55,187 nt of DNA from Clostridia bacterium (GCA_017463765.1 JAFTON010000098.1:1-55187); one strand, 5' to 3'. Positions 20,753 to 39,116 are shown, counted from the stretch's first letter. Notes: generated by a model from the letters alone, not told the origin. Made by a program: numbers and translations.

Positions 20753-20798
20753 TACTCACAATTTGAGTATTGACATTTACTCAATTATTGAGTATAAT
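20753..20798 (+). promoter_or_regulatory. consensus sigma-A promoter overlapped by two TACTCA-N5-TGAGTA palindromes
   Basis: TTGACA 20770-20775, 17 nt, TATAAT 20793-20798; palindromes at 20753-20769 and 20778-20794. Confidence 0.85.
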
Positions 20799-20844
20799 TA
20801 TCTTATGGCAAAGCCAAAAAAAACAATATGGAGGTTTTTATAAC

Positions 20845-23800
20845 ATGAAAAAAAGAATAATGATTGTTTTTATTATTATCCTTACACTGACTTTTGTCTC
20901 TTGCGATATTATTAAAGATAATCTAACCACTGACGGAACAAAAGGATTACCCGCACCAACAGAATTGCGTGTAGAGGAAGGGTACATTATTTGGAATCCT
21001 GTAGAATTTGCCATTAAATATACAATTTGCATTGACGGAAGAGAGTATTTTTGCGATGAAAACAAATATCCTCTCTCCAACATTAAAGACGGTGAACACA
21101 TCGTAAAAGCGAAAGCAAACGGAGATGGGATAATATACGATACCTCTCCTTTTTCGGAAGAGTTTAAAATAAATATTGTTGAGGGAGCTCTTGCAAATAC
21201 AGGTTTTTATTCACAGTTTGATGAGCTAACAATGCAAGAATCATTTCTCGGTTACGGTTTTGATGTAATAAATTCTTCTGTACTTTATGACAAGGTTGTA
21301 AAAACGTCTTCTCCAATATTCAACACCGATGAGTTGATGAATCTTAGACTATTAAAAGTAGATTCAAAAAGCAGTTCTGTTTCTGAGGTACAAAGCGAAG
21401 AAATTGATTCCTTTATGGAAGAGTGGAATTCCAGTCTAAATGTAAAAGTTTCTTGGGGCAGAAAAAAGATAGGTGGAAGTGTAAAAGTTAACACCGCATT
21501 TTCAGGAGGAAGCTCTACTGCAAAATCGAAATACTTCCACTGTATTACTTTTAATAATCAAAAATTTTACATTGTAATGCAAGGAACGACAGACGAGTAT
21601 AGATCCATGCTTTCTAATGGATTTGAAAAGGATTTATATTCAGATATGTCTCCGGCAGAATTATTCAATAAATATGGAACTCATTTTATTACCAGTGCCA
21701 TTATGGGTGGTAAAATAAACTCCTATTATCTCTACACAAGCGAAAAAGAAACAAGTTTTTACGACATTAGTACCCGTGTATCCACCAGCGTCCGTGCATG
21801 GGCAGCAAAAACAAACGTTTCTGTCAACGGTGGATATAAAACAGAAGCCGAAAGTCAAAGTATATATATAAAAAACACTCTCGAAATTCTCGGTGGAGGA
21901 GATTTTGGCTTTAAAAGCGACGAAGATATTAATAGATACTACGCCGATTGGGAGAAATCATTGAACGATCACCCTTCTTTAATAGGAATCAAAGACTCTG
22001 GATCGCTTTGGCCAATTTGGGATTTGATAGATCCAAGTAAAGATACCCGAAGTGATTATACTTGGATTGATGAAAACGGAGAGGAACGTACCGGGTCACG
22101 AGCACAGCAACTTCAAGGTTATTTTATGAAATACGGTGTTGACAATTACAACATACTTGCGGCAAACGCAGGGATACCGGAGATTATTCAACCAGAATCG
22201 ATAAATAATATACTTGTTAATGGGAAAGAACCTATCAACGGTGTATATGAGGTGTTTGCAGGAGCAAGCAATCGCATTACATTTAGTGTTACACCTGAAA
22301 CCGCTGTTGGATATAGCAAAAATATCAGACTTAGCGCACCTAGCAACTATGCCTCGATAAGCGATGACAATACAGAAATTATTATTGAGTCGTTCACTCC
22401 TGCAAACGAAGTAATTAGTATAGTTGTTTCCGCTGGAGATGTAAAGGAAACAATAAAAGTAAAAGTAATAAAAACATATAACGTTGATTTCGTAACAAGC
22501 TTTGACGATGTAACTGTCGAAAATCCTTATAAGTATCAAGGATTGAACTATGGATACCAGATTATCACCCCACCAACACTTTTAAATATGCCTATTGAAT
22601 ACAATCTCGTAGGCTGGTATAAAGATCCTTATTTCATAGAAGAATTTTTATTTGGAATCGATCCAGTGGTTGACAACATAACCTTGTACGCAAAATGGGA
22701 AATAAAAAGCTCGTCAATTCATTTTGTAACAAATATTTCTACTTATGAAATTGATCCAATTAAAGTAAACTTTGGAGAACAAATACAGTTCAACTTAGAG
22801 CCTTCTTTCGACGGGTATATCTTCAATGGATTCTATTCAGATAAACAATTAACTCAACCATTTGATTTCAACACAGCCATTTATCAAGATACAAGTATTT
22901 ACTTGAAATGGAGTTTCGAAGTATATTCGATATTCTTTAAGGTTGATGGGGAAACCGTATACACAGATACTTATTCAATAAATGATAAAAATGTTTTGCT
23001 TCCCGACGTTCCTGCTAAATTAGGTTATTTTGGTGTATGGGAATCTTTCGAACTAACATCTGGTGATATTATTGTTAATGCAATATATGAAGAAAAAGAA
23101 ACTTATACTGTAATCTTCAAAAACAATGAAAGTATAATAAAAACAGAAACATATAATGCTGATATAGGAATAACGTTGCCTACCTTAATCGATGAAAAAT
23201 ATCCAATGTATAATCATTTTTTAGGCTGGTACGAAAATGATAAGCCGTTTGTAAACGATATAGCCACAAATCCCAGGGATCTTGTTCTTAATGCGCATTG
23301 GAATCTTTGCACGGTTTATACCGATATGGCATCAACAAGTCACAACGTTAATAACCGTGTTATCATTGATTGGCGCAACGAAGTATTTACTGATTTTGAA
23401 GAAGCTACAGGAAGCTCTATAATTACAGTAAACAATACTTCATCCGAACTAATTTTGATTGGCAATCCCGATGTAGTTTATTCTAATCTTGCTATTAACT
23501 TCGCAGATTTTGAAGAAAATCAAGAGTTTACGCTGCGTTTTATTGATTTCAACTTTATAACCAATCAATCAGATGCTATCAAGCCTGTTGACACTGATGA
23601 CGGAATGATTCTTTTTATCGAAGCAACTGGTAAATGCTCAATTGAAACTACTTATGCAGGTGGTAATATTATTACAGGCTTTATCAACACCGTAAACCTA
23701 AGCGGTGACGGCGAGATGATTATTACTGCAGGTGATGGAGCAAACGGGGCAAAAGGATGGACTCCAGGAAAAAGTGATACCGGAAACGGTGGAACAGGAG

Positions 23801-24267
23801 GCACTGGCAACTCAGGAGGAACAGGTATCTCCTGCAATAATGTTGTTTTCGGTTCAAATATTACAATAACCATATATGCAGGAGATGGAGGCCGTGGCGG
23901 AAATGGCGGAAACTCAGTAAATAAATACTGGGGATCTGAAAACGATGGTGGAACCGGTGGTGCCGGTGGCACTGGTGGTATTGCGGTGAAAGCTGTAACC
24001 ATGATTGTTAATGATACTGCAACCGTTTCATTATATGGTGGTAATGGCGGAAACGGCGGCTCTGGAGGATATAGGGATACTAGATTTGGTAATGGTAATC
24101 TTGGATCTGGAGGATCAGGAGGAAATGGTAACACTGCTATTTCCTCAGATACAGAAATAATTGGATCTCCAATTGTCAACAATGGTACATCGGGTTCTTC
24201 TGGTAGTATCGGAGGAAATTGGCACAGTCAAGATGATTATTACAACACATATTATTGGTGGAATTGA
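20845..24267 (+). CDS. MACPF (perforin-like) domain lipoprotein with InlB-B/Listeria-Bacteroides-type repeats and Gly-rich C-terminus
   Basis: GGAGG RBS and ATG 20845; signal peptide ending FVS-C; LGYGFDV and signature YGTHFITSAIMGG (21673-21711); GWY..D...F.F...V..NITLYAKW repeats; GGxGG repeats at the end. Confidence 0.85.
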   Translation: MKKRIMIVFIIILTLTFVSCDIIKDNLTTDGTKGLPAPTELRVEEGYIIWNPVEFAIKYTICIDGREYFCDENKYPLSNIKDGEHIVKAKANGDGIIYDTSPFSEEFKINIVEGALANTGFYSQFDELTMQESFLGYGFDVINSSVLYDKVVKTSSPIFNTDELMNLRLLKVDSKSSSVSEVQSEEIDSFMEEWNSSLNVKVSWGRKKIGGSVKVNTAFSGGSSTAKSKYFHCITFNNQKFYIVMQGTTDEYRSMLSNGFEKDLYSDMSPAELFNKYGTHFITSAIMGGKINSYYLYTSEKETSFYDISTRVSTSVRAWAAKTNVSVNGGYKTEAESQSIYIKNTLEILGGGDFGFKSDEDINRYYADWEKSLNDHPSLIGIKDSGSLWPIWDLIDPSKDTRSDYTWIDENGEERTGSRAQQLQGYFMKYGVDNYNILAANAGIPEIIQPESINNILVNGKEPINGVYEVFAGASNRITFSVTPETAVGYSKNIRLSAPSNYASISDDNTEIIIESFTPANEVISIVVSAGDVKETIKVKVIKTYNVDFVTSFDDVTVENPYKYQGLNYGYQIITPPTLLNMPIEYNLVGWYKDPYFIEEFLFGIDPVVDNITLYAKWEIKSSSIHFVTNISTYEIDPIKVNFGEQIQFNLEPSFDGYIFNGFYSDKQLTQPFDFNTAIYQDTSIYLKWSFEVYSIFFKVDGETVYTDTYSINDKNVLLPDVPAKLGYFGVWESFELTSGDIIVNAIYEEKETYTVIFKNNESIIKTETYNADIGITLPTLIDEKYPMYNHFLGWYENDKPFVNDIATNPRDLVLNAHWNLCTVYTDMASTSHNVNNRVIIDWRNEVFTDFEEATGSSIITVNNTSSELILIGNPDVVYSNLAINFADFEENQEFTLRFIDFNFITNQSDAIKPVDTDDGMILFIEATGKCSIETTYAGGNIITGFINTVNLSGDGEMIITAGDGANGAKGWTPGKSDTGNGGTGGTGNSGGTGISCNNVVFGSNITITIYAGDGGRGGNGGNSVNKYWGSENDGGTGGAGGTGGIAVKAVTMIVNDTATVSLYGGNGGNGGSGGYRDTRFGNGNLGSGGSGGNGNTAISSDTEIIGSPIVNNGTSGSSGSIGGNWHSQDDYYNTYYWWN

Positions 24268-30802: not shown

Positions 30803-30836
30803 AACGGCAGAAGCGAAGAGCCTCTGCCGTTTTTTT
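30803..30836. terminator. terminator between convergent genes
   Basis: AACGGCAGA / TCTGCCGTT followed by T-run. Confidence 0.75.
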
Positions 30837-30857: not shown

Positions 30858-32426
30858 TTACTTTTTAAAAATACCGTTGAAGATTTCCTCAAGTCTTCTG
30901 AGGAAGAGGAGGATTGCCTTAGCAATCTTCTGAATAAGAGTCATCTCCTTTACAGGCTCATCATCACCGTTATCACCATCTGCAGGTCCGTCGATAATTC
31001 CATCACCACCCTGGTTGCCGTTGCCACCACTTACGGAGTGCCATGCGTTGTTATCATCAGCACTGCCCTCGTTGTAAAGGCACTCGTGACCGTTGCTGAG
31101 ATATACCTTGCCGTCGGTAGGAATGATAAGGTCGGGAGTCTGCTTAAGAGTGTCTACCTGCCAATCGCCACCGTTGGTGAAGAGGATACCCCAATAGCCA
31201 GCAGGAACGGTTGCGTAGTAGTAGCCGTCCTCACCCTGCTCCATAGGAGTACCGGGGAAAGCAAACGCCTCAGTACCGTCAACGTTCCAATAATAGATCC
31301 ATACCTCACCCCAGCCTGCATCATCCTTAACGTAAACAGTTACGTCCTCGGTGGTATCTTCGGGAGGAATGGGAGGAACATAGTCCTTAATATCGCCCCA
31401 CTGAGAAGTTCCGTTATCGTAAATCGCACCGTCCCCGGGAATTACAAGGTCTGCGCTCTGGGTGCCGTTACCGTCGTTGAATACTACAGAATCGCATACG
31501 GAAGGAAGCTCGATAAAGTAAAGAAGCTTTTCGTCATCCCATTCCATTTCAAGACCGGGCCATGTTGTATAAGCAACGTCATTGCTGCCACCCTCAACCC
31601 ATGCGTGTACGAAAACGGTGTTCCAATATGCGCTGTCGCCAACGTAGATGGTTATCTTATCACAGTTCTCAAAGTCTACGGTAGGAGCAGAAGGAAGATT
31701 GGGGTCTGCGCCTGTAGATGCAGAAAGGACATGTCCGACCGTACCTGTTGCAGGATCAAAGGTAATAGTAACGTTCTGCTCCTCGGTAAGAGAGAATGAA
31801 TAATTACCGAACTCGCCGTTACCCTGAGTACCCCAGGACTGATTCCAGCTGTGATCAAGAGCAACCTTACACTCATAATCGCCTGCAGGAATACCTGTAA
31901 AGGTCTTTTCATAAAGGCCGGTTTCTGAATTGAGAGTCATATCATTGTATGTATTGGAAACATCCCACTCAGAACCGCAGAGACCTGCAACACCTGCAAC
32001 AGTGTAGGTGCCCTGAGAGCTACCCTGATTTCCACCGTTAGGATCGCTCTTCCAATGGCCGTTACCACTTGCCGTATCGATTATATAGGTATCACCGGCA
32101 ACAAGAGTAAGGTCACCCGACTGAGCAATCTTATAGTCCCAACTATAATCCGAACCCTGAGGAAAGGCAACAAATATGATATTCGAAATACCGGCAGGCA
32201 GAGTGCATTCGTAGATGCCGTCGCCATCAGAATCTGTCATATCAAACCATTGTTCCCCACCGTCCCAGGTATAAATAGCAAATGAGGTATTCTCGGTGCT
32301 CCATTTGCCTGGATCAAGATATACTTTTGATCCCTCTGCAGCATGTGCAGTGAGCGTAACCATGCTTACAAGCAAGGTCATTACAACCAGCAATGCAAGC
32401 AAGAACTTACGAGTATTGTTTTTCAT
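30858..32426 (-). CDS. secreted non-catalytic multi-module starch-binding-type protein A (CBM26-like x3 plus X25-like), C-terminal amphipathic helix
   Basis: Signal peptide ending AHA; modules W..V..HAW...WPG..M, YTVAGVAGLCGSEWD..N.MT..G.YEK.F..IPAGDYECKV...W..SWG; no GH13 motifs seen. Confidence 0.75.
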   Translation of the reverse strand: MKNNTRKFLLALLVVMTLLVSMVTLTAHAAEGSKVYLDPGKWSTENTSFAIYTWDGGEQWFDMTDSDGDGIYECTLPAGISNIIFVAFPQGSDYSWDYKIAQSGDLTLVAGDTYIIDTASGNGHWKSDPNGGNQGSSQGTYTVAGVAGLCGSEWDVSNTYNDMTLNSETGLYEKTFTGIPAGDYECKVALDHSWNQSWGTQGNGEFGNYSFSLTEEQNVTITFDPATGTVGHVLSASTGADPNLPSAPTVDFENCDKITIYVGDSAYWNTVFVHAWVEGGSNDVAYTTWPGLEMEWDDEKLLYFIELPSVCDSVVFNDGNGTQSADLVIPGDGAIYDNGTSQWGDIKDYVPPIPPEDTTEDVTVYVKDDAGWGEVWIYYWNVDGTEAFAFPGTPMEQGEDGYYYATVPAGYWGILFTNGGDWQVDTLKQTPDLIIPTDGKVYLSNGHECLYNEGSADDNNAWHSVSGGNGNQGGDGIIDGPADGDNGDDEPVKEMTLIQKIAKAILLFLRRLEEIFNGIFKK

Positions 32427-32468
32427 AATATTTTCCTTTCTTTTATGTATTTATAAATACTCTTATAC

Positions 32469-32539
32469 ATTATATCACAGCAAAAAAAATATTACAATAT
32501 ACTTTTAAAGAAATAAGTATTTTTGTTAAAGTTGAACAA
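32469..32539 (-). promoter_or_regulatory. promoter TTGTAA-17-TGnTATAAT plus upstream 17-bp box (copy 1)
   Basis: -10 at 32474-32469, -35 at 32497-32492, box TTGTTAAAGTTGAACAA at 32523-32539. Confidence 0.75.
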
Positions 32540-32558
32540 AATAATTTTTAATTTTTAT

Positions 32559-32591
32559 AAAAAAAGCCCTTGCGTCATATGACGCAAGGGC
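32559..32591 (-). terminator. intrinsic terminator of protein B gene
   Basis: Perfect palindrome GCCCTTGCGTCATATGACGCAAGGGC followed by T7 on the minus strand. Confidence 0.82.
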
Positions 32592-32627
32592 CAAAAATGT
32601 TAGTTTACTTTTTATTAATTAAGATTA

Positions 32628-35600
32628 TTATTTCTTAACGAAAAAGTTCTTGAAGAAATCAGCAATCTTAGCGAAGAACTCGGTAATAGCCTTAATAATC
32701 TTCTGAATAAGAGTGAGCTCGGGCTCTACAGGATTCTCATCTACAGGAGGAACGTAGTTAGGATCTTCCTCACCACACTCGCACTTGCCCTCAACGAACT
32801 CATGCTCGTGAGCAGGCTTTTCGGAACGGGTGATAGTGTAGGTGTACTCGCCAACCTCGCAGATATAGTTACCTGCAGCATCTATGCCATCATATCTGAA
32901 GCCAACAAGATATGTACCTGCAACAAGCTCTACCTCGATAGAATCGGTAATAGCGCCTGTGAGATTGTCAACATTCCATACGAAGGGAGCTGTATCGGGA
33001 ACTGTTGCCTGATTGGGATAATCGGGCCAGATGAAGAATGTAAGAGGAGAAAGACCGGAGAATGTATAAATGCCATCCTCTTCAACGGTGAGGTAAAGCC
33101 ACTCATAACCCTTATCCTTAAGAGCCTGATTAAGAACGTACTTGTTCTCGCCAACAACGATAGTGTTAACTGCGGGAAGCTCTACGTCGTCGCCAAGCTT
33201 CTCAGCCTTAACGGTGAACTCACCGGTAACGCCTTCCTTACCTACGCATACGTAGTAGGTGCCTGCAGTAAGCTCAGCAGTACCAGTCCACTTGCAAAGG
33301 CAAGCGTCAGCGGAAGCAAGGTTCATCTCGGAGTAAATGTAGCAGTTGAGATCTGCAGAAGAAACGGTGTAGATACCGTCCTCAGCAACTACGAACTCAA
33401 GCCAAGCGATTGCACTGCCGGTAAGGTTAACAACAGAACCGTCGATAGTAACGGTGTTATCACCAAGCTGGAGTGCGGGAAGCTCGGGCTCCTCAACGTC
33501 GCCACCGCCGATAGCGGTCTTCTCAACGTTAACGGTTGCAACACCTGCGGTTGCGGGGCCGGCAGTAAATGCTACGCATACGTAGTAGGTGCCAGCATCA
33601 AGCTCGGTTCCGGTAACTGCCGCGTATGCGGAGTCGTAAACGAGAGCAAGGATGCCCTCACCGGTGAAGGTGTAGTTAGCCTTCTCGGTTACCTCGAAGG
33701 GAGCCCATACGATGTAATAGCCATAATCGTTGGAAAGTGCATCGGTGATAAGAAGCTTGTTAGCACCGATTACAAGAGTGTTAACCCAAGCGGACTTTGT
33801 AACAGCAACGTTGAACTCGCCAACTGCACCGTTACCAACGCAGATGAGGTAGTTGCCTGCCTCAAGGTTAGCCTTACCTGTGCCGCCGCAAAGGAGAGCT
33901 GTGCCGTCTGCAGAGAAGATCATTGCAAGAGCACCGTTGTCGCCTACGAAGCTATAGAAAGCGTTCTCGTCTGCAACGAAGGGAACCCACTCGATAGGAA
34001 GGTTGTAAGCGTTTACAAAGTTACCGCTAACAACGATCTTGTTGGTATCGCCAACTACGAGAGTATTAACGTGAGGAGGAACGTAATTAGGATCCTCTGC
34101 ACCACACTCGCACTTACCGTTAACGAAGTTGTGCTCGTGAGCGGGAGCATCCTGAGTAAGAGCAACCTTGTAGAAATAGTTGGTTCCACCCTTGTGGCCA
34201 AGATAATATGTACCTGCTGCTTCAATTTCGAAGGTAGTGATGTAAAGTCCATCCTTTACGGAGTCGGTGCTAGAACTATGAATAGCAGTAATAGCAGAAC
34301 CGTCAAATGTATAAATCTCTATATTTCTACCATCGGAACCGCACTTCCACCAAACTGTAATGGTAGCAGGACCATTGGTAGTGAACATAATGCTTCGAGA
34401 TACATCTCCACTTTCAACCTTTGTATTACCATTGAAGGAAAGACGAAGTTCGGATTCATAACCATCCTCAAATGTTGCTTTGGAGCTCTGAGTCTTACCC
34501 TTATCACCAAAGATAAGAGTGAAGAATTCATTAGAACCTACCTTAAGAGTATCGCCCTTAGAAACATCGCCCTCGTTTATAGTAGGAAGATCCTTACTTT
34601 CAAATACATTGGTAATCTTGTCGGAAACGTCAGGAGCTACGTAGTCAGGATCTTCCTCACCACATACGGAGCACTTACCTTCTGCGAAGGAGTGAGCGCC
34701 TGCTACCTTAACGTTCATCAGGTTAGTAAGCTGAGTCTGAGCCTCGTCAGTCCAAGCAGTACCACAGTAAGAGCAGTACCAGTATTCAACGTTACCGTCA
34801 TAGGACTGGCAATCGGTACCAGCCTTAGCCTCTACGTGTACTACGTCGTGCTTTGCATCGGGATTGGAAACCTCGTAGCACTCCTGACAAACAGGATCAC
34901 AGGGATAGAAGTAGCTATGTACGTGAGGAGGATCAGAGATGGTGAATGTGATCTTCTCTGTTGTGCTGTCGAAAGCAATTGTAAGCATTTTTCCTGCGGG
35001 AACCTCAACCCATGCATTATCGTCGGTCTGACCTGCAGCTGCACCACCCCAGCACTTAGTCCAGCCAAGATCAAGGCAAACCTTGAGGTTGGGCCAGATT
35101 GTTGCATCACCCTTGTTTACGTAAGAAATAGTCCAAAGACCGGTTTCCTTGTCGTATGTCATCTTGTTAGCAGTATTAGTGGGATCCCATGTTGTTCCAA
35201 AGAGATCAGCATTATCGCCTGCTATGGTGTAAACGGGAGCAAATCCACATACAGAGCACTTGGAGCCATCGTCGAACTTGTGGCCAAGAGCCTCGCCCTG
35301 AGACTGACCACACTTAGAGCATATCTGAGGCTTGTCGCAGGTTGCATCGGACCAATCGTGCTCGCACTCTACAACAGGAAGCTCAACATTAACGCTTACG
35401 GTAGTGCCTTTAAGTGTAATGGTTACAGTGCTACCTGCATCAGCAACAGTGTAAAGCTTATCAGCAGAGGGATATGCAGTACCCCAAGCGTGATCGCGAA
35501 CAACCTTAAACGCATAAGAGCCTGCTGAAACCTTTTCATATACCTTAGTATAGGTACCGGTTTCTGCATCATAGGTCATATCGTTTGCGGTGTTACCGGT

Positions 35601-36206
35601 ATCCCACTCGGTACCAAGATGTGCACCCGAGCCAGCTACGGTGAAGGTAGCCTGCACGTTACATCTGGTGCAGAGGTGATCGGAATTGAAGGAGTGACCA
35701 AGAGCGGAAACTACGGGGTCACCACAATCAAGACAGGTCTGAGCTGTAGTACAGGTTGCTTCAGCACTGAGATTGGTGTGAAGGCAGGTAGAACCGTAGG
35801 TAGACCAGGTTCCTCCACCACTGTCCCAGGTACCTTCCTTAACGGTGAAATGATTTGCACCGGAGGTAGGGATGGTAAGGTCTGCGGTCTGGTTCCACTT
35901 GTTATTCCAGTTGTTAGCTGCTGCAGAGGGATTCATTCTGCAGAAGATAACGTTAGGATATACCTTATCGGTAGGAACCTTAACCTCATATACGCCGTCG
36001 CCGTCAGCGTCAGTCATACTAACCCAGGTTTCGCCGTTGCCGAAGAAGTAAGCCGCGAAACGAGCATTGCTCTGCTTCCAATTCGCATTGGGAGTGAGAT
36101 AAAGTGTCTCGGGCTGGCTTGCAGCACTTGCAAAGAGGGTTGCAACGCTCATCATCATTGCAAGAACAATAACGAGAGCAACAAGAATTTTGCGTGTGTT
36201 TCTCAT
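32628..36206 (-). CDS. large secreted modular protein B (CBM26-like, two X25-like, Cys/His spacers, four unknown beta repeats), C-terminal amphipathic helix
   Basis: Signal peptide ending ASA; LYLTPNANW..ARFAAY..W..MTD.DGDGVY..IFCRMNP..WNQT module; biased codon usage consistent with high expression. Confidence 0.75.
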   Translation of the reverse strand: MRNTRKILVALVIVLAMMMSVATLFASAASQPETLYLTPNANWKQSNARFAAYFFGNGETWVSMTDADGDGVYEVKVPTDKVYPNVIFCRMNPSAAANNWNNKWNQTADLTIPTSGANHFTVKEGTWDSGGGTWSTYGSTCLHTNLSAEATCTTAQTCLDCGDPVVSALGHSFNSDHLCTRCNVQATFTVAGSGAHLGTEWDTGNTANDMTYDAETGTYTKVYEKVSAGSYAFKVVRDHAWGTAYPSADKLYTVADAGSTVTITLKGTTVSVNVELPVVECEHDWSDATCDKPQICSKCGQSQGEALGHKFDDGSKCSVCGFAPVYTIAGDNADLFGTTWDPTNTANKMTYDKETGLWTISYVNKGDATIWPNLKVCLDLGWTKCWGGAAAGQTDDNAWVEVPAGKMLTIAFDSTTEKITFTISDPPHVHSYFYPCDPVCQECYEVSNPDAKHDVVHVEAKAGTDCQSYDGNVEYWYCSYCGTAWTDEAQTQLTNLMNVKVAGAHSFAEGKCSVCGEEDPDYVAPDVSDKITNVFESKDLPTINEGDVSKGDTLKVGSNEFFTLIFGDKGKTQSSKATFEDGYESELRLSFNGNTKVESGDVSRSIMFTTNGPATITVWWKCGSDGRNIEIYTFDGSAITAIHSSSTDSVKDGLYITTFEIEAAGTYYLGHKGGTNYFYKVALTQDAPAHEHNFVNGKCECGAEDPNYVPPHVNTLVVGDTNKIVVSGNFVNAYNLPIEWVPFVADENAFYSFVGDNGALAMIFSADGTALLCGGTGKANLEAGNYLICVGNGAVGEFNVAVTKSAWVNTLVIGANKLLITDALSNDYGYYIVWAPFEVTEKANYTFTGEGILALVYDSAYAAVTGTELDAGTYYVCVAFTAGPATAGVATVNVEKTAIGGGDVEEPELPALQLGDNTVTIDGSVVNLTGSAIAWLEFVVAEDGIYTVSSADLNCYIYSEMNLASADACLCKWTGTAELTAGTYYVCVGKEGVTGEFTVKAEKLGDDVELPAVNTIVVGENKYVLNQALKDKGYEWLYLTVEEDGIYTFSGLSPLTFFIWPDYPNQATVPDTAPFVWNVDNLTGAITDSIEVELVAGTYLVGFRYDGIDAAGNYICEVGEYTYTITRSEKPAHEHEFVEGKCECGEEDPNYVPPVDENPVEPELTLIQKIIKAITEFFAKIADFFKNFFVKK

Positions 36207-36248
36207 AAATATTTCCTTTCTTTATTTTATTTTGTTCACGCTATTGTA

Positions 36249-36319
36249 ATTATAGCATAATTATTTATTATTTACAATATATTTTTTGTAAATGTTTGTT
36301 TTTTGTAAGAAATGCACAA
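36249..36319 (-). promoter_or_regulatory. promoter TTGTAA-17-TGnTATAAT plus upstream 17-bp box (copy 2)
   Basis: -10 at 36254-36249, -35 at 36277-36272, box TTGTAAGAAATGCACAA at 36303-36319. Confidence 0.75.
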
Positions 36320-36396
36320 TAAATTTTGAGTTTTTAGCTTTGTAGGGGTTAGAAGTTGGTTAAAATGTGAAATATGTTCATATTTTATTTATAAAC

Positions 36397-36429
36397 AAAA
36401 ATCCCCTGCACCCATAGGAGTGCAAGGGA
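36397..36429 (-). terminator. intrinsic terminator of protein C gene
   Basis: TCCCTTGCAC...GTGCAGGGGA stem followed by T-run on the minus strand. Confidence 0.7.
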
Positions 36430-36439
36430 CTCGAAAATA

Positions 36440-37981
36440 TTACTTCTTAAAGCCTGCAAAAAGGTTCTTGAACCAAGCGCTGATATTAGCGAAGAAATCG
36501 GTAACAGCCTTGAGAATCTTCTGCACAAGAGTAAGCTCGCCGGGCTGCTCGGGCTCGGGATCTGTGGGAGTTTCGGGATCGGGATTAGGATCGGGATCGG
36601 GATTAGGATCGGGATCGGGGGTAGGATCAGGATCGGGGGTAGGATCAGGATCAGGGGTAGGATCGGGATCGGGATCGGGATCTACGGGAGCCTGAGGCGC
36701 TGTAACAGTAGCCGAAGGAATGCCATCCTTAAAGCTGATGGTTACGGTGCTGCCGTCCTCTGCAACGTTGATATAGCAGTTATCTGCACTACCATTTTCA
36801 CCGTAGGATACGGTCCAGGTCTTGTTCTCGGTAACCTTGAAGTGATACTCGCCTGCGAAAACGTTCTCATAAACCTTAACGTATGCGCCTGTCTCCTCAT
36901 CGTAAACAAGGAGGTTGGTCTCATCACTTGCATTCCAGCTTGTGCCAAAGAAGTTTACGCCACCGGGTATATACTCACCGTTAGCGTCCATCATAACGTC
37001 ACCTGCGACGATATAAACCTTATCGGTATCGGGGGTAGGATCGGGGTCTACGGGGGTATCCGAAGCCGTTACGGTTACAGAAGGAACGTTATCTTTAAAT
37101 GTAATTGTAACGGTACTGCCCGCCTGTGCAACGTTAATGTAGCAGTTATCTGCGCCACCGTTTGCACCGTAGGATTCGTTCCAGGACTTGTCAACGGTAA
37201 CCTTAAAATCATATTCACCTGCAGCAACTCCCGTATAAACCTTCACGAAGCAGCCCAGCTCTGCATCATATTCAAGCTTATTTGCCTCATTGGTAACATC
37301 CCAGCTTGTGCCAAAGATGGTGGCATTGTCACCTGTCTGATACTCGCTGTTGATCTGGTGAACGTCACCAGCGATAATGTAAGTAGCATAAGCATCGCAG
37401 TTAGCGCAAGCACCGTCTGCACCGTAAGTATGGCCTGTCGCAAAGATTGGCGCAGTATAAGTCTCTCCACACTTGGAGCAGAGGTGAGAAATCTCTCCGT
37501 TCTCGGTACAGGAGGCAGGAGTAATAACACTTCCCTCACCTGAGGGAGAATGAATGCACTCACCTGTTTCGATAAGAGACCAGACTCCATTAGTACCGGA
37601 ATCCCACTGACCCTCGTTGATAGTATAGTGGTTATTCTTACCGTCATACTTAAGGTCACCTGTCTGATTCCACTTATTATTCCAATTGTTATCGGAAGTA
37701 CCGGGATTCATTCTGCAGAAGATGATGTTTTCAACGCCTGCGGGAATAACGCATGCATATACACCGTCGCCGTCAGGGTCGGTCATATCAAACCATGTGT
37801 TACCGATATCCCAGGTGTATGCAGCAAAGCGAGCGCCATCTATCTTCCAGTTAGAATTGGGTGTCAGGAAGATGGTTGTATCACCTGTGGTTTTTGCCGC
37901 GAAGGCAGTAATTGTTGTCATGCTCATCAGAAGTGTAAAAACTACAAGAAGAGCAACTAAAATTTTGCGTGTGCTTTTCAT
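36440..37981 (-). CDS. secreted starch-binding-type protein C (CBM26-like plus two X25-like, PD linker), C-terminal amphipathic helix
   Basis: Signal peptide ending AFA; paralogous to proteins B and D; two YIIAGDV...SW...N.L.YD.E.G..VKVY..V.AGEY.FKV...W..SYG modules. Confidence 0.78.
   Translation of the reverse strand: MKSTRKILVALLVVFTLLMSMTTITAFAAKTTGDTTIFLTPNSNWKIDGARFAAYTWDIGNTWFDMTDPDGDGVYACVIPAGVENIIFCRMNPGTSDNNWNNKWNQTGDLKYDGKNNHYTINEGQWDSGTNGVWSLIETGECIHSPSGEGSVITPASCTENGEISHLCSKCGETYTAPIFATGHTYGADGACANCDAYATYIIAGDVHQINSEYQTGDNATIFGTSWDVTNEANKLEYDAELGCFVKVYTGVAAGEYDFKVTVDKSWNESYGANGGADNCYINVAQAGSTVTITFKDNVPSVTVTASDTPVDPDPTPDTDKVYIVAGDVMMDANGEYIPGGVNFFGTSWNASDETNLLVYDEETGAYVKVYENVFAGEYHFKVTENKTWTVSYGENGSADNCYINVAEDGSTVTISFKDGIPSATVTAPQAPVDPDPDPDPTPDPDPTPDPDPTPDPDPNPDPDPNPDPETPTDPEPEQPGELTLVQKILKAVTDFFANISAWFKNLFAGFKK
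36574..36687 (-). repeat. degenerate 6/18-bp tandem repeat encoding a (PDPDPT/PDPDPN)n linker
   Basis: Repeated GGATCG/GGATCA/GGGTAG units. Confidence 0.9.
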
Positions 37982-38019
37982 AAAAGACCCTTTCTTTTTT
38001 TATTTTTTGTACCATATGG

Positions 38020-38090
38020 ATTATAACACATTTGGGTTATTTTTACAATATGTCTTCGAAAAAATGTTTACTTTTGTAAATTGTGCACAA
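38020..38090 (-). promoter_or_regulatory. promoter TTGTAA-17-TGnTATAAT plus upstream 17-bp box (copy 3)
   Basis: -10 at 38025-38020, -35 at 38048-38043, box TTGTAAATTGTGCACAA at 38074-38090. Confidence 0.75.
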
Positions 38091-38113
38091 AAGGATTTGT
38101 AATTACAATACAC

Positions 38114-38145
38114 AAAAAGCCCCCGTATTTACTTAATACAGGGGC
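38114..38145 (-). terminator. intrinsic terminator of protein D gene
   Basis: GCCCCTGTATT...AATACGGGGGC stem followed by T5 on the minus strand. Confidence 0.7.
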
Positions 38146-38165
38146 AAAACGTATGCTTTTGTAAA

Positions 38166-39116
38166 TTATCTTTCATTTCCACCGAAAAGACTTCTGAAAA
38201 AGTTCACTATTGCGAGCCATATTTTTTGGAAGAAGCTTAGCTTTTCCTCAGACTCACTTCCGTCGAAGTTGTCCGAATCATCAGAAGAATCGGATTGATC
38301 GTCATCGGGGTTTTCCACGGGGGTGTCGATAACCATTGCTGCGCAAGTAACCTTGCCGTCCTTAAAGCTGATTACAACCGTGCTGCCGTCCTTATCAACC
38401 TTAAGATAGCAATTCTCACCGTCATTACCGTAAGAAACGTCCCATGACTTATTTTCAGCTATCTTGAAGTGATACTCGCCTGCAGCCACGTTCTCATAAA
38501 TCTTAACGTAACAGCCGGATTCCTCGTCGTAGGTCATTCTGTTGTTTTCATCCGAAACATCCCATTTTGAAACGAACAGAGTATCATTATCACCCTTCCT
38601 GTAGCTATCGCCATCCTTCATTACATTGCCTGCAACAATATAGAACAGCTCCTCGCCACACTTTATGCAAACATCATTTTCATAGGAATGGGCGCAGGCA
38701 TTGCTGTCAAATACAGACCAGCGTCCCTCTCCGTTGCTCCATGCACCTGTGGCGATGGTATAATGATTTTTGGTTCCGTCAAATTTCAGATCATCCGTCT
38801 GATTCCAGGTTGTGCTCCAGCCATTGTGAGTTTCACCGGGATCAAGACGGCAGAAAATAATGCTTGTATACCCCGAAGGAAGAATTCCTTCATAAACGCC
38901 GTCACCGTCAGAGTCCTTCATCTCTATCCACAGATAAGAACCACTCTCATCCCAGACATACATAGCGAAACGGGCGTTATCAGACCTCCAGTTTGAGTTT
39001 GGAGTAAGGTAAATCTCCACGTCACCGTCAGCAGCATAGGCTGTAAATCCTATGAGACCGATAATCAAGGTCAGAATAGCTAAAAGAGTCAACAAAGAAT
39101 AACGAATGCTTTTCAT
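38166..39116 (-). CDS. secreted starch-binding-type protein D (CBM26-like plus X25-like), C-terminal amphipathic helix
   Basis: Signal peptide ending AYA; YLTPNSNW..NARFAMYVW...IFCRLDP..WNQT module; acidic linker; ends LSFFQKIWLAIVNFFRSLFG. Confidence 0.78.
   Translation of the reverse strand: MKSIRYSLLTLLAILTLIIGLIGFTAYAADGDVEIYLTPNSNWRSDNARFAMYVWDESGSYLWIEMKDSDGDGVYEGILPSGYTSIIFCRLDPGETHNGWSTTWNQTDDLKFDGTKNHYTIATGAWSNGEGRWSVFDSNACAHSYENDVCIKCGEELFYIVAGNVMKDGDSYRKGDNDTLFVSKWDVSDENNRMTYDEESGCYVKIYENVAAGEYHFKIAENKSWDVSYGNDGENCYLKVDKDGSTVVISFKDGKVTCAAMVIDTPVENPDDDQSDSSDDSDNFDGSESEEKLSFFQKIWLAIVNFFRSLFGGNER

Follow-up and report, generated by a model that had tools for sequence, protein, structure and literature searches.

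A conserved array of four predicted non-catalytic starch-binding proteins with a shared C-terminal amphipathic tail in uncultured gut Clostridia

What do four exported proteins do that are encoded side by side among the housekeeping genes of an uncultured clostridium, and that combine starch-binding-type modules with no recognizable enzyme? Starch not digested in the foregut becomes a major substrate in the hindgut of herbivores, and to our knowledge the ways in which uncultured Clostridia attach to it are understood from only a few models, namely the Ruminococcus bromii amylosome, the LPXTG enzymes of Eubacterium rectale and the Sus system of Bacteroides. The array in question lies at positions 30858-39116 of a 55,187-nucleotide stretch of Clostridia bacterium DNA (GCA_017463765.1 JAFTON010000098.1:1-55187), which in its entirety we call the window and which is part of a 2.0-Mb metagenome-assembled genome (MAG) of 142 contigs that is 80.7% complete. 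We assign a probability of about 0.55 to the reading that the array encodes exported proteins without catalytic function, which capture alpha-glucan (starch) and are retained at the cell surface, on the basis of sequence comparison and structural modelling.

The four genes, designated D, C, B and A in their order along the coding strand, are co-oriented on the minus strand, to which all coordinates below refer unless a plus sign is given. Gene D (38166-39116; 316 residues) encodes a signal peptide, an N-terminal Trp-rich module (N-module), a Cys/His knuckle, one X25 module, an acidic linker and a C-terminal helix, and gene C (36440-37981; 513 residues) a signal peptide, an N-module, a Cys-rich linker, two X25 modules, a linker of PDP repeats and the C-terminal tail. 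In gene B (32628-36206; 1192 residues) the signal peptide and N-module are followed by two X25 modules with Cys-rich linkers between, a jelly roll, four beta-sandwich repeats and the tail, and in gene A (30858-32426; 522 residues) by one X25 module, two CBM26 modules, a linker rich in Gly, Asp and Asn, and the tail. Judged by pairwise alignment the genes are paralogues, with 43% identity between C and D (314 residues, E 1e-74), 36% between B and C (461 residues, E 4e-71) and 48% between A and C (134 residues, E 5e-27). A hydrophobic signal peptide with an AxA-type cleavage site and without a lipobox Cys can be read from each of the four sequences; those of A, B and C share the start MK/RxxTRKxLxAL, and that of D is different. 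The initial annotation, which had described four co-oriented open reading frames (ORFs) of these lengths with near-identical signal peptides in three of them, therefore agrees exactly with the recomputed coordinates and strand and is borne out for the signal peptides; its assignment of the modules to CBM26 and X25 types is likewise supported by concordant Pfam, phmmer and, for D, fold matches.

The Pfam X25_BaPul_like model (PF22058, gathering cut-off 27 bits) scored above its cut-off in all four proteins (A 54, B 41, C 59.8 and D 44.5 bits), with five array matches over that value among one copy each in A and D and two each in B and C. These copies map to residues 156-262 of D (38331-38651; Pfam E 1.7e-11, Foldseek match to 7rpy at 5.5e-5), residues 197-305 and 319-428 of C (37067-37393 and 36698-37027; the former from a Pfam match in two stretches at 2.9e-16, the latter from Pfam and alignment), residues 187-275 and 323-425 of B (35382-35648 and 34932-35240; Pfam and alignment) and residues 137-232 of A (31731-32018; Pfam 1.9e-14). 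Protein A has in addition two CBM26 modules (residues 255-345 and 358-445; 31092-31664), which Pfam PF16738 (cut-off 28.1 bits) detects in two stretches with 73 bits (E 2.2e-20). An NCBIfam scan of the four proteins added nothing specific. Among solved structures, phmmer relates the CBM26 modules of A to R. bromii Amy16 (9qf9, 1.7e-14) and its X25 module to X25-2 of R. bromii Sca5 (7rpy, 2.6e-10), and in the latter alignment E508/W509, W555 and N564 are matched in A by an E-W pair, by another aromatic residue and by an Asn; the Sas20 paper gives these Sca5 residues as maltotriose contacts or platform residues (PMC9112005). Two Trp positions are kept in six of six X25 copies, and the equivalent of W555 is Trp or Tyr, with a conserved Trp just upstream.

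The X25 fold was tested on a model of D only, built with AlphaFold2 from 31 sequences at a mean predicted local distance difference test (pLDDT) score of 75.4, with two globular parts at 83-94. Residues 149-260 of this model superpose in VIA on the X25 module of Bacillus acidopullulyticus pullulanase (2wan) with Z 12.0 and a root-mean-square deviation (rmsd) of 1.9 over 91 residues, and on 7rpy with Z 11.5, and Foldseek concurs. By these matches the X25 and canonical CBM26 modules are ordinary members of their families. Elsewhere in the genome, CBM26 also occurs in an 803-residue CotH kinase-domain protein (L003, contig C107) and in a 1262-residue BspA-type leucine-rich-repeat protein (L004, contig C77), both unusual partners for a starch-binding module, and a 1649-residue secreted protein (L002, contig C27) that lacks the tail and any other Pfam family contains weak X25 copies below the Pfam cut-off.

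The N-module, by comparison, is invisible to domain libraries. It occupies residues 31-138 of D (38703-39026), where it is modelled as a confident beta-sandwich of divergent CBM26-like type (pLDDT 88-94), residues 33-138 of C (37568-37885; alignment and profile), 31-140 of B (35787-36116; alignment) and 31-135 of A (32022-32336; alignment), the copy in A being without the CRMNP signature. Pfam returned no N-module match in the four array proteins, none of 64 single N-module copies matched Pfam CBM26 or CBM_25 at E <= 1, and a profile search of PDB sequences found neither a carbohydrate-binding module (CBM) nor a solved structure. The best VIA matches of the D module are the CBM26 of E. rectale Amy13K (6b15; Z 8.7, rmsd 2.5, 86 residues, 20% identity) and that of Bacillus halodurans (2c3g; Z 8.4), followed by Sas20 domain 1, CBM41, CBM20 and Sas6 at Z 7.5-8.0, and starch binders dominate the list as a whole. 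Profile-profile comparison with hhalign, made after removing from the CBM26 profile 38 of 144 'CBM26' matches that overlapped N-modules, gave a probability of 97.7% (E 1.9e-12, 78 columns), against 7.6% for an X25 profile used as control. Because of this difference, and in keeping with the modelled fold, we regard the N-module as a relative of CBM26 that has diverged from it and contains two insertions (D-x-A-R and C-R-M-N-P-x4-N-N-W-N-N-K-W), rather than as the separate kind of domain suggested at the outset. N-modules show little or no variation at the Y-x-W and W positions aligned with the CBM26 platform, and the shared Trp-rich module noted originally is both real and conserved in homologues.

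The family so defined is large, comprising 3839 representative clusters at E <= 0.001 among 1.84 billion representatives (2534 at <= 1e-10 and 925 at <= 1e-30), spans Clostridia and Bacteroidales and reaches eight copies in single proteins. Its partner domains were surveyed in 55 of the best 150 proteins, picked by length (439-1331 residues); 32 of them have no Pfam family at E <= 1e-6, and starch-related families (CBM26, X25, CBM48/AMPK1_CBM and, once, GH13) occur in 14 of the 23 that are annotated. Lipoproteins of Bacteroidales (Alistipes, Muribaculaceae, Paludibacteraceae, Barnesiella) carry one to four N-modules that are 50-60% identical to clostridial copies, and such high identity across phyla suggests transfer of the module between them. 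Within the same genome the N-module is shared by a 1685-residue secreted protein (L001, contig C92) that has neither the tail nor any other Pfam family.

Neither a catalytic fold nor a catalytic domain was found in any modelled or scanned part of the four proteins. Signal peptide, binding modules, Cys/His-rich connectors, low-complexity linkers and tail account for the whole of A, C and D, and the place where an enzyme might have been overlooked is B, in which about 700 residues belong to no Pfam family above cut-off. Those residues are the argument for suspecting that one of the proteins is an undetected enzyme, with a catalytic domain that sequence models fail to recognize. However, an AlphaFold2 model of residues 492-1192 (39 sequences) is all-beta and confident (mean pLDDT 84.2), resolving into a jelly roll and four beta-sandwiches whose best matches are binding domains, and we consider a hidden catalytic domain highly improbable. 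The jelly roll (residues 528-689; 34140-34625) resembles the carbohydrate-binding domain of a putative pectate lyase, with Z 19.9, rmsd 3.0 and 21% identity over 143 residues to 8wc1 and Z 19.3 to 8x8h in VIA, where the following match reaches only Z 11.2, and with a Foldseek E-value of about 1e-7 and a TM-score of 0.80; the fold is the same as in the pectate-lyase structures, and in B it is set among starch-binding modules. Our literature search, in which only a benchmarking paper came up, found no description of the ligand of the 8WC1/8X8H domain. The four repeats (residues 721-1128; 32823-34046), modelled mostly at pLDDT 80-94, are of a PPC or collagen-binding-domain-like type (Z 8.1 to the collagen-binding domain of ColG and 5e-5 to 5iku in Foldseek, in a whole-model search that barely tested them; a weak Pfam PPC match lies below cut-off) and probably form a stalk. 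The unassigned part of B has 264 homologues, and among the 120 listed the Pfam families are X25, CBM26, CBM77 and a few other binding domains, or there is none. The absence of catalytic domains claimed at first thus withstands inspection of the one region most apt to contradict it, and glycoside hydrolases, cohesins, dockerins and transporters were likewise not found in the four proteins or in the adjacent genes.

How such proteins would be retained by the cell is suggested by their last thirty or so residues. A tail profile (hidden Markov model) matches residues 288-316 of D (38169-38255), 478-513 of C (36443-36550), 1161-1192 of B (32631-32726) and 490-522 of A (30861-30959), in all four proteins after an acidic or Pro-rich linker, and describes a conserved helix with a Lys-rich end and the consensus E-L-x-F-F-Q-K-I-x-K-A-I-x-D-F-F-x-x-I-x-x-W-F-K-N-L-F-x-x-K-K. 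Its hydrophobic moment is 0.56-0.69 (0.58 in C) and its mean hydrophobicity 0.10-0.41, and polar residues (Lys, Asp and Asn) occur throughout its length; because of this distribution and the modest hydrophobicity the tail is, on composition, amphipathic and not membrane-spanning. The helix is conserved beyond the array, as first claimed, since 126 of 237 collected homologues show any tail match, in 118 of them at most six residues from the C-terminus. Our literature search, among the 15 of 184 records listed, found no description of such a tail. The closest precedent that we can offer is Escherichia coli PBP5, a Sec-exported protein that a short C-terminal amphipathic helix keeps on the outer side of the cytoplasmic membrane (PMC2909392). 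The array proteins have the features of this class of anchor in that they are predicted to be exported and have an end of high hydrophobic moment and modest hydrophobicity, modelled as a helix (residues 295-311 in D and 1166-1190 in B). The PBP5 helix has 18 residues and belongs to a periplasmic enzyme of a diderm (PMC2909392), and it has no sequence relation to the tail.

The occurrence of the tail, taken from genome searches, indicates a role wider than starch. In the genome of the window the profile finds six ORFs, which are the four array proteins, a pectate lyase of PL1/CBM77 type (1278 residues) and a Pel9A-like beta-helix protein (1342 residues); a link of the helix to GH13 enzymes, which the initial annotation had suggested looking for, was checked and failed, since none of the six GH13 ORFs of the genome carries it and it occurs instead on pectate lyases, GH95 and GHL10 proteins. 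Five related array-carrying genomes have two to seven tail-bearing ORFs each, and outside the arrays of eight related genomes we find 13, comprising three PL1 + CBM77, four Pel9A-like, two GH95 and one GHL10 proteins and three without an assigned family, so that 10 of these 13 further secreted proteins have glycan-active domains. One array homologue has a TGD motif, a transmembrane segment and a KKK signal in place of the tail, and the Bacteroidales relatives of the array proteins are lipoproteins. On these findings the tail appears to be an exchangeable part that anchors or displays secreted glycan-active proteins and that is not specific to starch.

The same distribution lends itself to another reading, in which the tails are assembly elements whose helices bundle or dock on a partner, the proteins still bind alpha-glucan and the whole forms an analogue of an amylosome or cellulosome free of cohesins and dockerins. 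The presence of the tail on several glycan-active proteins per genome is dockerin-like, its hydrophobic residues have a heptad-like spacing, and no other anchoring or assembly module was found; yet the helix has no known partner, and its form, a single stretch of 30 residues rich in Phe and Trp with Lys residues at its end, is also what one would expect of an in-plane membrane anchor, which leads us to rate assembly as unlikely, if a candidate to be taken seriously. A third possibility is that the tail is a sorting signal comparable to those of sortase, exosortase or rhombosortase substrates, which an enzyme dedicated to it would recognize and process so that the proteins become covalently attached to the envelope. 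The tripartite layout (E-L-x-F-F-Q-K-I as motif, then hydrophobic residues and finally a basic terminus) would be in keeping with this, as would the extreme C-terminal position in 118 of 126 tail matches and the restriction of the tail to a lineage, where it was found in 5 of 24 genomes of the same genus and in none of 16 from other families of the order. A helix this polar would not, however, span the membrane, no NCBIfam sorting-signal model matched, and no candidate processing enzyme came to light, although no search was aimed at one; we find processing of this kind quite improbable.

We favour in-plane retention of starch-capture proteins, which fits the wider genome as follows. The genome encodes six GH13 ORFs, among them three GH13 lipoproteins, as well as GH77 and a MalK-type ABC transporter, and the GH13 lipoproteins and the transporter, of maltodextrin type, lie on contigs other than that of the array. 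One starch cluster (L099, contig C88, 199-12445) contains a pullulanase-type GH13 lipoprotein of 910 residues, a 492-residue protein with Flg_new repeats, a solute-binding protein, two permeases, a GH13 amylase lipoprotein of 535 residues and a MalK-type ATPase; at a second locus (L100, contig C25, 405-4763) GH77 adjoins another pullulanase-type GH13 lipoprotein. We infer starch binding, tail-based retention at the surface and joint action with the GH13 enzymes. The proteins would be exported through Sec by means of their cleavable signal peptides and would carry their binding modules distally, on the N-terminal side, as an N-module and one or two X25 modules, plus the two CBM26 modules in A. 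The Pro/Asp-rich linker that comes next, or the putative beta-sandwich stalk in B, would span the wall and let the modules project outward, and the tail helix would lie in-plane on the outer face of the cytoplasmic membrane, as in PBP5, or on another component of the envelope. The membrane-tethered GH13 lipoproteins would then cleave the bound starch, and the maltodextrin-type ABC transporter would import what is released.

Several known systems resemble this arrangement in part. Sas20 and Sca5 of R. bromii (PDB 7RPY) share with the array proteins that they are secreted and non-catalytic and have X25 beta-sandwiches with a Trp platform (PMC9112005). They differ in that Sas20 has a dockerin and Sca5 has cohesins and a sortase signal, none of which was matched in the array proteins, and in that two X25 modules of Sca5 are packed into one clamshell site, whereas those of the array are single or separated by linkers; the array proteins, unlike either, have the CBM26-like N-module and the amphipathic tail. 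Sas6 of R. bromii (CBM26 + CBM74; PDB 7UWU) is a non-catalytic binder of starch granules with CBM26, as the array proteins are predicted to be; the N-module overlays its CBM26 at Z 7.5, and the CBM26 modules of A match Amy16 (9QF9), but the array proteins have neither CBM74 nor a dockerin. SusE and SusF of Bacteroides thetaiotaomicron (4FEM, 4FE9) are non-catalytic surface proteins with tandem X25-type modules beside a membrane-tethered GH13 enzyme, and the D model matches SusF at Z 8.1 and SusE at Z 6.1; they are, however, lipidated at the N-terminus, reside in the outer membrane and belong to a polysaccharide utilization locus (PUL) with SusC/D, whereas the array proteins have no lipobox, a proposed C-terminal anchor and housekeeping neighbours. 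The modules closest to the N-module in fold and homologous to it at profile level, those of 6B15 (E. rectale Amy13K) and 2C3G (a B. halodurans amylase), are parts of enzymes, while the N-module has its two insertions and is missed by Pfam CBM26.

Because neither dockerins or cohesins nor the lipoprotein and PUL features were found, the array is not a member of the amylosome or of the SusE/F systems, and its likeness to Sas20, Sas6 and SusE/F is a functional one. The description of the array as a new glycan-capture system was overstated, given that non-catalytic starch-binding surface proteins are known from those very examples and that some homologues are already named 'starch-binding protein' at NCBI; the novelty lies in the N-module subfamily, in the tail and in an array that is conserved and evolves fast. 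As to independence from dockerins, neither dockerin (PF00404) nor cohesin (PF00963) matched in A-D or in the 80.7%-complete genome, where sortase (PF04203) and SLH domains also had no match; A, C and D have no unassigned stretch long enough for a dockerin, the unassigned part of B models as other folds, and the C-termini of A-D end in amphipathic helices, with no LPXTG motif. This much of the original claim stands, but the absence is not proof, since the genome is incomplete and sequence models can miss divergent cohesins and dockerins.

That reservation is one of several considerations that weigh against starch capture at the surface as the function of the array. The Tyr/Trp stacking platform, which we take to be the defining residues of CBM26, is imperfect in both canonical copies of A (H-A-W ... 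W-P-G in the first and Y-Y-W ... F-P-G in the second), each of which has one position altered, His for Tyr or Phe for Trp. The Z of 8.7 obtained for the N-module falls in the middling range of the tool, and 9 of the 23 annotated N-module proteins carry families unrelated to starch (LRR_5, Flg_new, Big_2, CBM_X2, CHB_HEX_C). Confidence in the modelled tail helix is low to moderate (pLDDT 50-55 in D and 67-82 in B). Single X25 modules of Sas20 and Sca5 are reported not to bind alone (PMC9112005), and D and A have one X25 module each while the pairs of B and C are separated by linkers. Finally, B has a pectate-lyase-type binding domain, a jelly roll that recurs at 30.5% identity (E 4e-17) in the Pel9A-like protein of the genome that also ends in the tail; B may therefore bind more than starch, and the array may not be purely starch-directed.

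Carried further, this last consideration turns the array into a general set of adhesins for plant particles or glycans, which might target other cells, pectic material, or glucans of glycogen-like type from microbes or the host. Beyond the strength of the jelly-roll match, such a reading can point to CBM77 in some B homologues, to the prevalence of pectate lyases among the tail-bearing partners (7 of 13), and to the occurrence of N-modules with LRR, Flg_new and Big_2 repeats of adhesin type. All assignable modules of A, C and D are nevertheless of starch-binding families, and the X25 platform residues known from Sca5 are retained, so we judge a general adhesin set to be rather improbable and continue to favour alpha-glucan capture.

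Homologues of the array proteins number 707 at E <= 0.001 among 8000 scored candidates; the names given to a few of them, from Clostridia MAGs, are 'hypothetical protein' and 'starch-binding protein'. When one genome was scanned for each species, a relative was encoded at 265 of 417 pattern matches, and the 80 loci kept come from MAGs of yak, sheep, goat, deer, cattle and buffalo gut. The window's array has as neighbours genes for a HAD hydrolase, glutamate dehydrogenase (GDH), cyclophilin and an AI-2E transporter, and in at least six related herbivore-gut MAGs two to four array genes occupy the same chromosomal site, between HAD/GDH and cyclophilin/AI-2E/DUF6873/MatE (loci L014+L015, L016, L017, L018, L020, L032 and L035); in L018 the order D-C-B-A is the same, with products of 317, 493, 1036 and 565 residues. 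Since flanking proteins are 59-96% and array proteins about 35-68% identical to those of the window, the array genes, as judged from these comparisons, are diverging faster than their surroundings. The array is rare in the window's own genus, where 5 of 80 sampled species match D at all, two of these matching the N or X25 modules, and none of 31 high-quality genomes shows a match.

Each gene but the first is preceded by a promoter-like site. The sequence TTGTAA-17-TATAAT with an extended -10 TG lies upstream of C (38020-38048), and sites with identical hexamers upstream of B (36249-36277) and A (32469-32497). Gene D lacks such a site and starts 22 nt past the stop codon of the HAD hydrolase gene that precedes it, and because of these two features it may be transcribed by read-through from upstream. 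A terminator for each gene, as proposed originally, is supported by terminator-like hairpins located 6-35 nt downstream of the four stop codons (38119-38145 after D, 36399-36432 after C, 32565-32592 after B and 30803-30831 after A); in the whole region 11 hairpins were counted, against 6.9 +/- 2.2 in shuffled sequences, so that the total is not significant and it is the placement that fits.

A palindrome, TTTTGTGCA-N5-T-N-ACAAAA, is found about 22 nt upstream of the -35 element of C, B and A (38072-38092, 36301-36321 and 32521-32541) and also precedes the gene for the 910-residue GH13 pullulanase. We considered it as the operator of a starch regulon and rejected it as such; the genome holds 43 matches at <= 2 substitutions, and because equally good ones precede GH3, GDSL lipase and HSP90 genes no starch regulon is claimed. 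Two metatranscriptome runs from one study contain assembled contigs of an RNA library that match parts of B at 97-98% identity (one of them over 460 nt, with 8 differences), and the same runs have no contig on C or D outside one low-complexity stretch, parts left uncovered being uninformative. Gene B also ranks with the long ORFs of strongest codon bias in the genome (0.99 of its Leu codons are CTY, the 99th percentile of 813 ORFs). The contigs and the codon bias of B are weak hints of expression. A 908-residue frame opposite B (32802-35528, plus strand) is not a gene, its openness being explained by the codon bias of B, which has one TTA/CTA/TCA codon in 1192.

The connectors between modules form a further recurrent feature of the array. 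Cys/His-rich stretches occur at residues 141-154 of D (38655-38696) and at residues 141-162, 281-300, 686-708 and 1129-1152 of B, with the patterns C-x-H-x(5-14)-C-x2-C-G and H-x-H-x-F-x2-G-K-C-x-C-G followed by D-P-x-Y. They fall outside every Pfam family. Homologues of D type always have H143, C150 and C153 of the connector and nearly always C141, and the four candidate ligands suggest zinc knuckles. The first pattern is present in nine ORFs of the genome, and the connector-related stretches of B match many other large secreted proteins encoded there. Away from the array, a 1165-residue ORF of the window (20770-24267, plus strand) has a MACPF/perforin domain (4.2e-15) and Listeria-Bacteroides repeats; the stretch has a G+C content of 0.36, against about 0.45 around it, and may be an acquired island.

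A more far-reaching proposal, which we advance tentatively and with somewhat more doubt than conviction, is that uncultured gut Clostridia of one lineage use the tail as an undescribed device for surface display or assembly, replacing sortase, SLH and cohesin-dockerin attachment and tethering starch binders, pectate lyases, GH95 and GHL10 proteins, and that the array is its starch-capture arm, equipped with a CBM26-like subfamily that is shared with Bacteroidales and missed by domain libraries. This subfamily, with thousands of members invisible to Pfam, probably merits a family or subfamily definition of its own. The tail peptide may prove to be a general display signal in the lineage, which would allow better annotation of cell-bound enzymes in MAGs, and the locus suggests a third Gram-positive design for holding starch, in which free-standing multi-module binders on an amphipathic tail would stand beside lipoprotein amylases.

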